The position numbers and the translations under genes were made by a program. Below are positions 1 to 64,000 of a DNA stretch of 64,000 bases, in pieces; the first letter of the stretch is position 1, and each line of letters opens with the position of its first letter. The notes below the pieces were generated by a model. The model was not told the origin of the DNA. It saw nothing but the letters and a program-made list of their open reading frames with translations, and searched no databases. This stretch comes from Escherichia coli (GTDB lineage Bacteria; Pseudomonadota; Gammaproteobacteria; Enterobacterales; Enterobacteriaceae), in NCBI GenBank assembly GCA_009729775.1, contig GCA_009729775.1_4081.1; one strand, given 5' to 3'.

Positions 1-497
1 TCAATATCAATGTATTTCCTTGCGATATCTGCGTTTATGGACAAATACAAACTACCACCTGTCCTCTGACTCAGGATTCCATCTATCTGCGATATAGGAT
101 GGTTGTTATTGAGGATAAGCATTATTGTACTTATCTTGTGTGCTAATAACTCTATCTCATTCATAATTTACCTTATGGATTCGGGTGCAATAAATGATCT
201 TGATAACTTAAATGCTCTTGTGATATTGCACTTAAATAATAACTAAAATTTTCAATACCACCCTTTAAATGTATATTGTAATACAACTTAATACTTACTA
301 ATAAAGAATCATTTAAATCATTTATTGCTTTTGTATTAACCACTTTCATTAATGTTCTTCTCTTAAAAATCGTTTGATAGCATAATCTAAATAAAATTCA
401 TAACACATGCTATCTCTGTTCTTTATCCATATTTTGTAATCGGATTTTATATTACTTAACAAATAATTTGTATTAATTGTGTAATAATCTAATCGCC

Positions 498-887
498 CTA
501 ATCGTGCCATTTAATAGGATACTCCTTTCCTTGTACTACATAAGATATAATCCATCCGTAATGAATAGGACTATTCTTTTCTCCTTTAGGAATAAAATAT
601 AAAGATGTACTAGGATTATAACTGAATAAATCATTATTGTCAAATGTAAAATGAGATAACGTTATCTTCCTTGTACTTGGACTAATAACATTCTTAACAC
701 CAAACACGGTATCTTGATATTTCTCTGAAAATTCAAACAATGCATCTGTAATTAAATCATTGAATTCTATACATAATGGTTTAAAAGAACCATCATTATC
801 TTTGAATTCCTTATATAAAGAGCTTCTTGTATTCAAAAGAAATATTACTTTTTTAAGATCCTGAACTATTTCTGGATTCATATTCAT
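498..887 (-). CDS. hypothetical protein (129 aa)
   Basis: ORF-track minus ORF at the distal end of the paralog operon; start may be an internal Met. Confidence 0.5.
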   Translation of the reverse strand: MNMNPEIVQDLKKVIFLLNTRSSLYKEFKDNDGSFKPLCIEFNDLITDALFEFSEKYQDTVFGVKNVISPSTRKITLSHFTFDNNDLFSYNPSTSLYFIPKGEKNSPIHYGWIISYVVQGKEYPIKWHD

Positions 888-1119
888 TTATCTCATTCTG
901 TATCTTAAGCATCAAAATTTGCATATTAATTTTTTGTACAAGGTGCTTGATAAATTTCTGTGCCATTTCTTCTTGTTCTTTTGTACCAAGATAAAATAAC
1001 AGATTAAATTCTGATAATCGCAAAGAAAAATCTTCATCACCACCCTTTAAACAAAAATCCCTGTACTTTGTAGCGTACAAATATTGGTTTACCTTTTTAT
1101 AATACCCTGTGTTTTGCAT
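853..1119 (-). CDS. family-A small paralog (88 aa)
   Basis: Contains FYLGTKEQEE variant of the LGTNYQE family motif; packed end-to-end with neighbours. Confidence 0.55.
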   Translation of the reverse strand: MQNTGYYKKVNQYLYATKYRDFCLKGGDEDFSLRLSEFNLLFYLGTKEQEEMAQKFIKHLVQKINMQILMLKIQNEINEYESRNSSGS

Positions 1120-1307
1120 ACTATCTCCGTTCGCAACGAATTTATATAATAATGAACAAATTGTTCTTGTGAACGTGTTCCAAGAAAAATAAACATATCA
1201 AACTCTGTTGTTTTTAAATTCAATGCATCTTTTGTAAAATTCCTGTTGAATTCCCTGTACTTTTGGGTCTTCCATTCTTGATTAATTGTCTTGTATATCG
1301 ATTTCAA
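1089..1307 (-). CDS. family-A small paralog (72 aa)
   Basis: IFLGTRSQEQ motif; overlaps neighbours by a few nt. Confidence 0.55.
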   Translation of the reverse strand: MKSIYKTINQEWKTQKYREFNRNFTKDALNLKTTEFDMFIFLGTRSQEQFVHYYINSLRTEIVCKTQGIIKR

Positions 1308-1608
1308 TGATTCTCCCTGACATACCTTGTATTAGCTTATCATACATATCGAGCATCACTTTTTGAATATTAATTAGTACTGGCATCGTGCAAATATCAA
1401 TGTCGTATACTAAGCTGTACTGGAATAATTCATCTTCCTGCATTTGTACTAAATTAGGTAAAGGATAATTGTCTGCCTCTTCATCCTGATACTTGAAATG
1501 CATAACACCATCCTTTTTGTACAAAAGAATGTCAATATCACCTAACTCTTCTGCATAACCAAAAATACATATACTCGATGTTTTTGCTATATTAAATTTC
1601 ATATACAT
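1282..1608 (-). CDS. family-B protein (108 aa), ELFQYSLVYD motif
   Basis: Shares the acidic-FQYSLVHD motif with 1611, 2230, 2582, 41600, 57592 and 63199. Confidence 0.55.
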   Translation of the reverse strand: MYMKFNIAKTSSICIFGYAEELGDIDILLYKKDGVMHFKYQDEEADNYPLPNLVQMQEDELFQYSLVYDIDICTMPVLINIQKVMLDMYDKLIQGMSGRIIEIDIQDN

Positions 1609-1610
1609 CC

Positions 1611-1925
1611 TTATACATAAATTTGATAGACATTTTGAACAAAATACTTTGGAAGACTACTATATGATATCATCTGCCTTTGTACTTCCTTCATCTCTTC
1701 CAATGTCAATCCCAAAGAATCATCGTGTACTATCATGTACTGAAACTCGTCTTCTTCAGAGATATCAAATAAATTCGGTACTGCAATTATATCAATACCT
1801 ACCATCCAAAAAAAAGAATTATTACTTTTTCTGTACTCAAAAAAATTCAAAGAAGAACCACTCTGTAAATCAGATACCATAATGGAACATTCATCGTTAC
1901 GTACAATACAATTGAATTTACGCAT
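1611..1925 (-). CDS. family-B protein (about 104 aa), DEFQYMIVHD motif
   Basis: Start adjusted to internal Met (MRKFN...) that abuts the stop of the upstream gene (TAATG overlap). Confidence 0.5.
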   Translation of the reverse strand: MRKFNCIVRNDECSIMVSDLQSGSSLNFFEYRKSNNSFFWMVGIDIIAVPNLFDISEEDEFQYMIVHDDSLGLTLEEMKEVQRQMISYSSLPKYFVQNVYQIYV

Positions 1926-2170
1926 TATCTCCACCTCTCTCCGTCTGTACAAGAGTACTGGTACGTTGTCGTTAGGGTAGGGACCATGTTTGTAATGGGC
2001 ATGTTGTTAACAATAACCGTAACAGGCATAAGAATCGTCTCTTCTCTACTCTGTCCTGTCCTTGTGCAATTCATCTTTTGCATTTCATCTGAATCCATGA
2101 AATACAATACAAATGGTGCAATCCCAAGAACAATACACAAGACGATAAGGAAATTTAAAAAATTTAACAT
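1925..2170 (-). CDS. small membrane protein (81 aa)
   Basis: Hydrophobic N-terminal helix MLNFLNFLIVLCIVLGIAPFVLYF. Confidence 0.5.
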   Translation of the reverse strand: MLNFLNFLIVLCIVLGIAPFVLYFMDSDEMQKMNCTRTGQSREETILMPVTVIVNNMPITNMVPTLTTTYQYSCTDGERWR

Positions 2171-2229
2171 AATTTTTACCCTATGATTAACGTTAGTGTA
2201 CTATATCAGTAATGAAAAGTACTATCAAG

Positions 2230-62519: not shown

Positions 62520-62550
62520 AAGTATCCTTAGATGCAATTTTTTGATGTGG

Positions 62551-62766
62551 TTATTGTATCAAAGATGTATCGATTTGTACAACATTTATTGTAACTATTT
62601 CGTACATATAGTCAGGTGCATTGAACTCTGCATACCACTCAATGATCTCACAGGCAGCATCAACTTGGTTGTTCGCATTAACACGTCTGGCATAGGTACT
62701 AGACATTTTATATCTACCATTTACATACACGTTATATACACCATGACACCACCACATCTTAGTCAT
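62551..62766 (-). CDS. hypothetical protein (71 aa)
   Basis: ORF track. Confidence 0.5.
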   Translation of the reverse strand: MTKMWWCHGVYNVYVNGRYKMSSTYARRVNANNQVDAACEIIEWYAEFNAPDYMYEIVTINVVQIDTSLIQ

Positions 62767-62977
62767 TTATGCTAGGCCATACTTTATATTGTAAGTTCTG
62801 GTATTGAAATTTACCAATTTCATTTTTCTTACGGAATGATTCATCTACTTGAATTTCCGCATCGTACTGACCATCAGCCTTTACAACGTACTTAAATTCT
62901 TCTACGTGTGAAAAACGTTGACCTTCACCTTCTGGTTTATAGACTTGTACTAAACCTTCAACTAGATATAAATTCAT
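62759..62977 (-). CDS. hypothetical protein (72 aa)
   Basis: ORF track. Confidence 0.5.
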   Translation of the reverse strand: MNLYLVEGLVQVYKPEGEGQRFSHVEEFKYVVKADGQYDAEIQVDESFRKKNEIGKFQYQNLQYKVWPSIND

Positions 62978-62980
62978 TTA

Positions 62981-63202
62981 TCATTCCTCATCACTTTCAG
63001 TTAGTATAATGCTATGTACAGCTTCCACATAGCGGTGTGTTTTGGGTGTGTTATACTTTGTAATTTCATCAAACAATTTAAACAGTGCATCTACTTCACT
63101 AAGAGCACGAATGAATACATCCATCTTGGTGACTACTCTGGAAAACCCGCGTATGTTATTAAATTCAGAGACGTGTTCATACACAACATAGTATCTATTC
63201 AT
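62981..63202 (-). CDS. hypothetical protein (73 aa)
   Basis: ORF track. Confidence 0.5.
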   Translation of the reverse strand: MNRYYVVYEHVSEFNNIRGFSRVVTKMDVFIRALSEVDALFKLFDEITKYNTPKTHRYVEAVHSIILTESDEE

Positions 63203-63717
63203 ATATTAAAAAGTTCCATGAATTCATTGAATAAAGAAGTTCTAATGCACATAACAAATTCAAAATCAACATCTATGGTGTCAAGTAGTTTGAACAACTT
63301 TGGTACTAATGGATCATTCACCTCAAAGTTATGAATCAAACTTTGTTGAAACACATTTTCTTCAGTACTATAATCAATAACAAAATATTCAGCAATACCA
63401 GGTGGTGTGTAAACATCATATAAAATATGGCGGTGATGATTTGTTTTAGAACTAGGGGAATATATAAGTTCTATTTCATAAGATTTATCAGCACTGCGTG
63501 CGTAACAAACAATATCAGTACTTGTTATTTCTGAACCATCACTTCGCTCTGAAAAACAAATATCAGCATATCGTTTTCCAGAGAGATTCAAAAGATCATG
63601 AGTTGTTTTACCATAACAGAAATCAGTTTCAATGCGTATCACATCTTGATATTCAATTGGTCTTGTATCGCGGCGTTCACGATTAAACACTAATTTCAAC
63701 AACTCATTAATATCCAT
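63199..63717 (-). CDS. family-B-like protein (172 aa), VFQQSLIHN motif
   Basis: ORF track; family motif. Confidence 0.6.
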   Translation of the reverse strand: MDINELLKLVFNRERRDTRPIEYQDVIRIETDFCYGKTTHDLLNLSGKRYADICFSERSDGSEITSTDIVCYARSADKSYEIELIYSPSSKTNHHRHILYDVYTPPGIAEYFVIDYSTEENVFQQSLIHNFEVNDPLVPKLFKLLDTIDVDFEFVMCIRTSLFNEFMELFNI

Positions 63718-63917
63718 TACTTAGTCTCAATAACCTTTAGATTTACAAAGTCACCTTTAACCTTCATACATTTGTATTCAGTGCGAGATTCATCACCAGC
63801 ATCACGAGGCCAATGAGTTGCAGAGTAACACTGCTCAGGTGTTTTATATACACCTTCACCAACGGTGCGAGTGATTTCACCATTAGTTAGTACTACTGCA
63901 AGATATAAAGTAAACAT
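63717..63917 (-). CDS. hypothetical protein (66 aa)
   Basis: ORF track. Confidence 0.5.
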   Translation of the reverse strand: MFTLYLAVVLTNGEITRTVGEGVYKTPEQCYSATHWPRDAGDESRTEYKCMKVKGDFVNLKVIETK

Positions 63918-64000
63918 ATTAGTCCTTAGAATAATTTATTAATAATAATAGAACCCAAACCAAGTACTGCAATAATTGCTGATACCCACATTACCGCGTT

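Follow-up and report, generated by a model that had tools for sequence, protein, structure and literature searches.

The palindromic hexamer AGTACT is a lineage-specific genome word of the Rak2-like jumbo phages (genera Asteriusvirus, Alcyoneusvirus and Mimasvirus), and its density is kept by selection acting on the DNA itself, which overrides synonymous codon choice. The word was studied in a 64,000-nt stretch of DNA filed under Escherichia coli (contig GCA_009729775.1_4081.1), hereafter the window, whose positions serve as coordinates unless stated otherwise. Megablast identifies the window as part of a PBECO4/121Q-type jumbo coliphage (genus Asteriusvirus, 'Rak2-like'), a group of E. coli myoviruses of ~350 kb, with 88-98% identity to phages JP4, UB, PBECO4 and others in mosaic blocks. 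The counterpart of the window in PBECO4 lies at roughly 122.9-191 kb, and the full 348-kb PBECO4 genome, put together from seven pieces, was used alongside it.

A first-pass annotation of the window had singled out the octamer CAGTACTG, and its over-representation is real: 58 copies are present against 0.80 +/- 0.85 expected, with a maximum of 3 in 100 dinucleotide-preserving shuffles. The octamer is not the informative unit, however, as the hexamer AGTACT accounts for the signal. The hexamer occurs 260 times against 22.4 +/- 4.5 expected (shuffle maximum 33) and is the sole strongly enriched palindromic hexamer in the window. Its most frequent flank combination is CAGTACTG (58 sites), ahead of CAGTACTA (38), TAGTACTG (34), CAGTACTT (22) and AAGTACTT (22). 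Among the 891 sites of PBECO4, information beyond the hexamer is confined to the -1/+1 position, where C accounts for 45% and G for 8% of bases (0.31 bit); across samples the corresponding ranges are 45-47% and 6-8%. G at -1 is shunned in all lineages; Asteriusvirus and Alcyoneusvirus favour C there, Mimasvirus either A or C. CAGTACTG is a lineage-specific flavour of the conserved hexamer.

The 891 copies in the whole PBECO4 genome compare with 119 expected and correspond to one site per 390 bp, against about one per 250 bp in the window. Every 10-kb bin of PBECO4 holds at least 12 copies where 3.4 are expected, including the bins with capsid, tail and replication genes, and the peak of 45-67 copies per 10 kb is the early region that corresponds to the window. 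AGTACT is in these respects a highly iterated palindrome (HIP): a short perfect palindrome found genome-wide at many-fold above composition or Markov expectation. Its nearest known counterpart is the cyanobacterial HIP1 (GCGATCGC), a palindrome likewise present in great excess and under selection, the function of which is a matter of continuing debate (PMC5861425, PMC4390886); AGTACT is an analogue of HIP1, not a member.

The enrichment recurs in Klebsiella phage KP13-7 (Alcyoneusvirus; late region, 62 copies vs 11.4 expected, 5.4x), Cronobacter phage GAP32 (Mimasvirus; 114 vs 17, 6.7x) and Pectobacterium phage CBB (Mimasvirus; early region, 226 vs 13.6, 16.7x). The late structural regions of PBECO4, KP13-7 and GAP32 are themselves enriched 4-7x. 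No enrichment is seen in the distant relative Pseudomonas phage PA5oct (4 vs 13.6, 0.29x), in T4 (8 vs 10.3, 0.78x), in Vequintavirus W70, a 137-kb coliphage (8 vs 9.2, 0.87x), or in E. coli K-12 (6 vs 23.2, 0.26x). The E. coli density of 0.06 AGTACT per kb (~1 per 17 kb) makes the host 43-68 times sparser in the word than the phage. Among 116 IMG/VR loci retrieved by a 14-mer search (median 1.2x), strong enrichment of 9-22x is confined to Rak2-like contigs of ~345-378 kb or fragments of them, always with zero GCGC.

Every enriched phage has its host among the Enterobacterales, and the trait is missing from PA5oct, a relative that infects Pseudomonas; the sites might recruit or titrate a host protein of that order, perhaps blocking cell division. 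SlmA is one such protein: its binding sequence in E. coli nucleoid occlusion, GTGAGTACTCAC, is a palindrome with the same central hexamer, and its reader is a dimeric helix-turn-helix (HTH) protein of the TetR family (PMC3020112). SlmA needs G1, T2, a purine at position 3, A4 and G5 in each half-site (PMC3020112), and the phage sites do not follow this pattern. They favour T, T/C and C, with G beside the core in only 6-8%, so that the required G1 and purine 3 are disfavoured, and the 348 kb of PBECO4 contain zero GTRAGYRCTYAC matches. Unrelated coliphages of similar GC content (T4 and W70) are also without enrichment, and a literature search gave no other host protein with an AGTACT site. SlmA or another host factor was rejected on these flank requirements and controls, and this account is very unlikely.

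The pressure behind AGTACT reaches deep into genes. In the window, 153 of the 260 copies (59%) lie inside open reading frames (ORFs) at 2.95 per kb, in all three frames (64/31/58), and the other 107 are non-coding at 8.8 per kb; 32 of the 58 octamers likewise lie within ORFs. The description of the motif as concentrated in intergenic promoter regions thus holds for density but fails for numbers. When synonymous codons are shuffled inside each gene, a null that retains every protein and the codon usage of each gene, 47.1 +/- 5.5 hexamers and 5.6 +/- 2.2 octamers are expected in window ORFs, where 155 and 32 are counted (z ~20 for the hexamer). With a deliberately lenient promoter mask over 39% of the window, 138 hexamers (13.4 expected) and 34 octamers (0.4 expected) are left. 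Because the excess survives both codon shuffles and the promoter mask, AGTACT enrichment is not due to base composition, codon usage or promoter consensus, and the outcome that the first-pass annotation had named as fatal to its proposal, loss of enrichment under the first and last of these controls, did not occur.

The same holds for the whole of PBECO4, in which 713 coding copies are found against 204 +/- 12 in codon shuffles (z ~42; frames 0/1/2 = 349/133/231). Ser-Thr is spelled AGT-ACT in 349 of 672 dipeptides (52%) where 102 (15%) are expected, and Val-Leu is spelled GTA-CTN 315 times against 136 expected. The pressure extends to the protein level, skewing dipeptide content: the PBECO4 proteome contains 672 Ser-Thr dipeptides vs 466 expected (+44%) and 731 Val-Leu vs 537 (+36%), with Thr-Ser and Leu-Val at expectation. 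A codon or dipeptide artefact is ruled out by the codon-preserving shuffles, and AGTACT resembles HIP-type words in that it occupies non-coding DNA and every frame of coding DNA in numbers for which neither protein sequence nor codon usage can account. PBECO4 also encodes six tRNAs (L005:7837-12112, minus strand): Thr(UGU), Asn(GUU), Met(CAU), Ser(GCU), Ser(UGA) and Gly(UCC). The codons that frame-0 AGTACT brings into heavy use are AGU, which Ser(GCU) reads, and ACU, which Thr(UGU) can read; a tie between this tRNA set and the word is possible, though only suggestive.

Individual sites turn over while the word is maintained. In codon alignments of orthologues, AGTACT is conserved at 88% between PBECO4 and the window (any hexamer, 75%), at 30-33% between PBECO4 and KP13-7 (16%) and at 20-24% between PBECO4 and GAP32 (12%). 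Between genera this is about twice the hexamer background, yet most positions differ while density persists. Density rather than position is under selection, which is the pattern of Chi, of DNA uptake sequences (DUS) and of HIP1.

For other over-represented palindromes, CCWGG of E. coli among them, biased repair has been suggested as the source, and AGTACT might similarly be a neutral by-product of a mutation or repair bias resembling very-short-patch (VSP) repair, or of codon or dipeptide usage. Biased repair was considered for HIP1 as well (PMC5861425). Such a bias should drain the sequences from which sites arise, but no one-mismatch neighbour of AGTACT is drained in PBECO4: AGTATT/AATACT stand at 1.05x and most others at 1.0-2.0x, only AGGACT being low (0.48x). 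A VSP-like conversion bias toward AGTACT was rejected for want of a drained neighbour. The roughly two-fold conservation in orthologues, a count that codon-preserving shuffles cannot reach, the presence of sites in all three frames and in non-coding DNA, and a 4.3-kb island of normal codon usage with no site all speak against neutrality, which is already disfavoured and has very little probability left. Conservation above background without a mutational source-sink signature is what HIP-type selection looks like.

The island (4135-8417, minus strand) has 0 sites where ~12 are expected and marks where AGTACT is absent or not tolerated. It is a tight tandem array of 16 paralogous genes of 66-90 aa with an LGTNYQ motif (phrog_4148; 18-70% mutual identity), and only 2 Ser-Thr dipeptides are encoded in it. 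The matching gaps in PBECO4, of 7.7 and 5.6 kb, lie at 116.6-124.3 kb and ~126.9-132.6 kb.

The accumulation of AGTACT takes place in genomes from which other palindromes have been purged. In PBECO4, 23 of the 64 palindromic hexamers are at zero (8.5-32 copies of each expected), CAGCTG is present as one copy, and GCGC is absent against 294 expected. The window likewise lacks 23 palindromic hexamers (116 copies expected in sum) and GCGC (0 vs 61). GGATCC, CTGCAG, CCATGG, GGTACC, GAGCTC, CTCGAG and GTCGAC are examples missing from both. Nearly all eliminated hexamers have at least four G/C, and GTGCAC and CACGTG are spared. The purge is common to KP13-7, GAP32 and CBB but not PA5oct, and type II restriction evidently presses hard on the Rak2-like lineage. 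That ~900 copies of a 6-bp palindrome are kept amid the purge of 23 others therefore implies a substantial benefit.

The first-pass annotation had also offered DNA modification or restriction avoidance as the origin of the motif, which finds no support in that form. AGTACT is the opposite of avoided, being 7.5-12x over-represented, and the two annotated methyltransferases resemble a GATC-type Dam and a CpG-type DNMT3. A different form of this idea is that an unrecognised phage-directed enzyme methylates or hypermodifies AGTACT, protecting or marking nearby DNA as in the methyltransferase model of HIP1, which is tied to orphan methyltransferases in cyanobacteria (PMC4390886). At least two methyltransferases are encoded by the lineage, and ~900 ScaI-type sites would be safest if protected, given that 23 other palindromes have been eliminated. 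The enzymes themselves point elsewhere: gp148 falls in the small Dam family, in which the phage enzymes that have been characterised target GATC (PMC4190342), and the alignment of gp416 with the catalytic domain of CpG-specific DNMT3 runs from end to end, while AGTACT is without CpG. The extreme avoidance of other sites argues that the DNA is not broadly protected, and modification alone would leave both the selection for more sites and their stereotyped placement at promoters unexplained. With the Dam-family gp148 and the DNMT3-like, probably CpG-specific gp416 both weakening AGTACT as a methyltransferase target, this account is unlikely. The gp416 gene (PBECO4 L005:21340-22200, minus strand) encodes a 286-aa C5-cytosine methyltransferase that matches the DNMT3A/B/C catalytic domain (E 3e-23) better than M.HhaI or M.HaeIII. 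Its DNMT3-like character fits the CpG methylation reported for RaK2 (PMC3622015).

The flanks of AGTACT bear on what kind of molecule may read it. Oriented by transcription, the flanks of sites in genes are mirror images (C at -1, 41%; complement of +1 C, 47%). The 12-bp palindrome TTCAGTACTGAA, allowing at most one flank mismatch, accounts for 7.7% of sites against 0.64% expected (12-fold), and symmetry reaches ~20 bp in the hub, a leader described below (e.g. ATGATTCAGTACTGAATCAT). Because the flanks are mirror-symmetric and the palindromes extended, a two-fold symmetric protein is favoured and an RNA-level signal disfavoured. An RNA-level motif was rejected on the transcription-symmetric flanks and the absence of an Rfam hit, neither an Rfam family nor a tRNA being found in the window. 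Spacing is near-uniform, with 306 pairs within 130 bp vs 296 expected, the sole exception being a sharp peak at 20-22 bp that comes from promoter pairs. Hairpin-building was rejected as the chief driver on the ground that close pairs are not in excess.

The promoter pairs belong to a stereotyped early-promoter design. Twenty-two well-formed sigma70-type promoters of the form TTGACA-N16/17-TATAAT carry AGTACT within the spacer (TTGACA-N9/10-AGTACT-G-TATAAT); the -35 box is perfect in 18, and 20 lie on the early-gene strand. In eight of them a second AGTACT abuts the -35 box (AGTACT-a-TTGACA or AGTAC-TTGCAA), with palindrome starts 20-22 bp apart. Of 74 promoter-like sites, 17 have AGTACT starting 7-8 nt ahead of the first T of TATAAT. 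In the one-site promoter at 11234-11261 (minus strand; TTGACA-N9-AGTACT-G-TATAAT), the site fills the spacer from ~-19 to -14, and further one-site promoters are predicted at 14096-14123, 15759-15786, 17389-17416, 27719-27746, 50582-50609 and 61613-61640. The two-site promoter at 18190-18225 (minus strand) reads AGTACT-a-TTGACA-N9-AGTACT-GG-CATAAT, with palindrome starts 22 bp apart; the same design is found at 20718-20753 and 21012-21047, and variants with AGTAC-TTGCAA at 16381-16413, 19542-19574, 23089-23121 and 23872-23904. The operator of a dimeric repressor would be expected to have an extended symmetric palindrome lying over core promoter elements, and this is seen here in the consensus TTCAGTACTGAA and in the promoter sites with their 20-22 bp pairs.

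The two-site design is shared by the early promoters of CBB (AAAAGTACT-TTGACA ... GAGTACT-TTATAAT, 21-22 bp apart). CBB has a second class of early promoters in which the -35 lies inside a GC-rich hairpin (AAAGGGGTTGAC-loop-TTAGCCCCTT, then TATACT), for example at 6494-6540, 8418-8465 and 15767-15812 of that phage, and AGTACT counterparts of the same construction (AAGTACTTGAC-tccg-GTCAGGTACTT). From their layout, these hairpin promoters look like overlapping terminator-promoter cassettes. In W70, all eight AGTACT lie within a cassette of ~1.5 kb (15151-16672) homologous to the early region of the window, promoters included. To judge from this homology, the cassette was evidently acquired horizontally, in an exchange of early promoters and genes between phage families.

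Some terminators are built from the word as well. Behind an RCC1 gene, the hairpin at 36175-36194 (plus strand; GCCAGTACT-c-AGTACTGGC, then a U-run) folds at -14.8 kcal/mol (z -4.5), and similar terminator hairpins lie near 32492-32511, 38649-38669, 39934-39953 and 42276-42298 (the last on the minus strand), with folding energies of -7.3 to -15.5 kcal/mol. These five hairpins of paired AGTACT (z down to -5.5) followed by U-runs have the form of intrinsic terminators, in line with the earlier report of the motif in RCC1 cassette hairpins, but they account for only ~10 of the 260 sites. The RCC1-repeat (beta-propeller) genes form a tandem set of eight at 31317-41203 (plus strand), opposite in strand to their surroundings, with an AGTACT-stem terminator after each. 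PBECO4 has ten such genes, and their database label is 'regulator of chromosome condensation'.

AGTACT could accordingly be a promoter and terminator building block and nothing else, its coding copies being incidental. The 22 promoters with AGTACT beside the -10, the terminator stems, the highest density in the early cassette region and the movement of a whole cassette with AGTACT promoters into W70 are in its favour. The first-pass annotation was correct that the motif abuts the -10 box of early promoters, but this describes a minority of sites: 39 of the 260 hexamers and 8 of the 58 octamers lie 1-2 nt upstream of a TATAAT-like box, and 22 of those 39 hexamers belong to the well-formed promoters. 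A sigma70 promoter element would hold a fixed position in most of its occurrences, and 85% of window AGTACT is not beside a -10 box. The promoter-consensus reading therefore covers the 22 early promoters (8 of them two-site) and the design shared with CBB, but not the 138 hexamers against 13 expected outside the 39% mask, the coding excess (z ~20 in the window and ~42 in PBECO4) or the 4-7x enrichment of late structural regions in PBECO4, KP13-7 and GAP32; nor are close pairs in overall excess. As a sole explanation it is already contradicted, and its chance of being right is very small.

The densest stretch of sites in the window is a non-coding leader at 26514-28110 (minus strand), the hub, with 16 AGTACT (10 per kb). 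The richness of a 26.5-28.4 kb hub had been noted before and is confirmed, with 18 hexamers and 11 octamers in 1.85 kb. Hub sites often bear the extended consensus ttCAGTACTGAa, and repeat families D1-D5 and inverted repeats I2, I8 and I15 lie in the same leader. Nucleotide 1 of phage vB_Ec-M-J, the start of its annotated 21.5-kb direct terminal repeat, aligns in reverse orientation to position 28110, and the hub is therefore the leader at the physical genome end. The early genes from 26.5 to ~6.6 kb sit in the terminal repeat, with transcription directed away from the genome end; within it, the early-gene region at 8418-26513 (minus strand) consists of small ORFs between terminator/promoter cassettes and contains 111 AGTACT (6.1 per kb). 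The turning point of cumulative GC skew is the hub. Iteron-like repeats in and around the hub, GGCTA(A/G)A / CCATC(C/T)AGCC at ~27088-27400 and TGATTAC at 28023-28246, may belong to packaging or replication signals, and the 3.2 kb beyond the boundary (28111-31316) are gene-poor.

The recombination hotspot Chi (GCTGGTGG) is also enriched, with 11 copies vs 0.4 expected in the window (~28-fold) and 22 vs 1.9 in PBECO4. On the minus strand Chi lies at 9655, 11116, 12523, 14962, 16232, 17695, 21878, 26691, 27514 and 51079, and on the plus strand at 27526. Ten of the 11 share one orientation, and a Chi/anti-Chi hairpin is made by the copies at 27514 and 27526, at a distance of ~0.6 kb to the physical genome end. 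These features suggest that the incoming linear DNA is shielded from RecBCD.

The uniform dispersal of AGTACT and the selection on its density resemble Chi, itself 12-28 times enriched, and the word might likewise serve a replication or recombination enzyme: a nickase that seeds recombination-dependent replication, or the site preference of a primase or topoisomerase, with dispersed sites speeding replication or repair. The annotation of the lineage includes recombination genes of T4 type along with several endonucleases, some of them HNH, and a recent preprint on HIP1 links that palindrome to homology-dependent DNA uptake (bioRxiv 10.1101/2024.09.10.611283). No enzyme could be tied to AGTACT, however, and Pfam and PDB gave nothing informative for a 379-aa 'endonuclease' of the window. 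Some 900 cleavage sites per genome would be hazardous, and neither the fixed placement by -10 and -35 boxes nor the operator-like terminal palindromes would be explained. An enzyme site of this kind is quite unlikely.

The reading preferred here, at a probability of roughly 40%, is that AGTACT is a genome word of the HIP1 kind that a lineage-specific, dimeric and likely phage-encoded protein reads on the duplex; this protein would occlude early promoters and load on phage DNA. Such a protein would be two-fold symmetric. Its best sites (TTCAGTACTGAA) gather in the 1.6-kb terminal leader and flank the -35 and -10 boxes of early promoters, where one dimer, or two dimers separated by two helical turns, would on binding block host RNA polymerase, shutting off early transcription or setting its timing. 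The scattered hexamers would let the same protein load along the phage chromosome and hardly on host DNA, making it a phage-specific nucleoid-organising or self-marking protein. In outline this would be akin to phi29 p6 or SPO1 TF1, but nucleated by a defined sequence. The earlier suggestion of a site for a phage-encoded regulator gains from the symmetry, the extended palindrome and the restriction to one lineage; of the three suggestions it fits these best. It is strained by the need for that regulator to act genome-wide, and no candidate protein was found among the window ORFs scanned.

Several points weigh against this proposal. A scan of 140 window ORFs, out of a proteome of ~550 genes, with Pfam, PHROGs and NCBIfam found no HTH, ribbon-helix-helix, TetR or similar domain, and the ORFs next to the hub were uninformative, with no DNA-binding domain, so that the cognate protein expected of an operator was not identified among them. 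No helical phasing, long-range periodicity or clustering was seen outside promoters, although cooperative coating might predict such patterns, and the 4.3-kb site-free island shows that AGTACT is not needed everywhere. The promoters are consensus predictions rather than mapped transcription starts, their stereotyped placement could partly stem from duplication of one ancestral cassette, and the upstream promoter copy also overlaps an A-tract resembling an UP element. The ORF map of the window consists of the authors' own greedy calls (144 ORFs, 81% coding), and relatives other than PBECO4 are represented by pieces of 33-50 kb and E. coli K-12 by 100 kb. Sequence alone may also be compatible with an unrecognised modification enzyme or a host factor.

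The domains that were recognised in the 140 ORFs are RCC1 repeats, a DksA/TraR zinc finger, a GNAT acetyltransferase, a ParE-like domain, a pyrimidine-dimer glycosylase and a kinase. The LGTNYQ paralogues of the island were tried as a candidate reader and rejected: AlphaFold gives a confident model of four helices (predicted local distance difference test score 94), but no PDB fold matches at E <1.

Comparison with known systems places AGTACT nearest to HIP1, with which it shares a short, perfectly palindromic form and an abundance far beyond that expected from composition. Islands poor in HIP1 mark atypical DNA, as does the AGTACT-free island. The differences are that HIP1 is 8 bp long and belongs to a cellular chromosome, whereas AGTACT is 6 bp and viral; that neither a nested methyltransferase site nor a matching orphan methyltransferase was found for AGTACT, the annotated enzymes looking like GATC and CpG types; and that AGTACT is fixed in sigma70-type early promoters and concentrated at the physical end of a genome otherwise purged of palindromes. 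Chi and the DUS or uptake signal sequences (USS) are also dispersed, imposed on coding sequence, turned over at a kept density and used as marks of 'self' DNA by dedicated machinery. They are asymmetric and orientation-dependent with known readers (RecBCD, and ComP with the uptake machinery), unlike AGTACT, which is palindromic with symmetric flanks and has no orientation.

Another family of comparable systems comprises phi29 p6, SPO1 TF1 and the stoperators of cluster A mycobacteriophages, in which one phage protein binds many sites on its own genome, with preferred sites near the ends and early promoters. Regulators of this type repress early transcription while organising the chromosome, as is proposed for the AGTACT reader. 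p6 and TF1, however, recognise bendability or hydroxymethyluracil-containing DNA rather than a defined hexamer, and stoperators are asymmetric, 13-17 bp long and number ~25-35 per genome vs ~900 AGTACT. An equivalent AGTACT protein was not found among the window ORFs scanned. No published account of AGTACT in jumbo phages was found in the open-access literature; promoters and methylation are treated in the genome papers on CBB and RaK2, which do not mention the word. The single match for TTCAGTACTGAA in the prokaryotic literature was put out by a motif finder run on sets of TrpR promoters and does not represent a characterised site.

The function of HIP1 has resisted 30 years of study, and a cultivable coliphage equivalent is a more tractable system, with a 350-kb genome, a lytic cycle of about an hour, E. 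coli as host and ready access to pull-downs and recoding with synonymous codons. The contrast with a near-total purge of palindromes makes the cost-benefit case for a function unusually clear. A sequence pressure that rewrites codon choice and dipeptides in ~550 genes also bears on annotation, on codon-usage and host-prediction tools, and on the recoding or engineering of therapeutic-candidate phages. AGTACT density is in addition a simple marker for Rak2-like DNA in metagenomes and for exchanged segments such as the vequintavirus cassette and the AGTACT-free islands. The boldest extension is self-marking proper, in which a dense word (~1 per 250-400 bp) and a cognate protein would coat or organise only phage DNA, so that a jumbo phage with ordinary bases and no phage nucleus could tell its own chromosome from the DNA of host and competitors. 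This extension is doubtful. If true, self-marking would stand as a third strategy beside base modification and compartmentalisation; the coat could serve nuclease shielding, shut-off of early promoters or the directing of replication or packaging, and the AGTACT-free islands would be genes that need to escape it.

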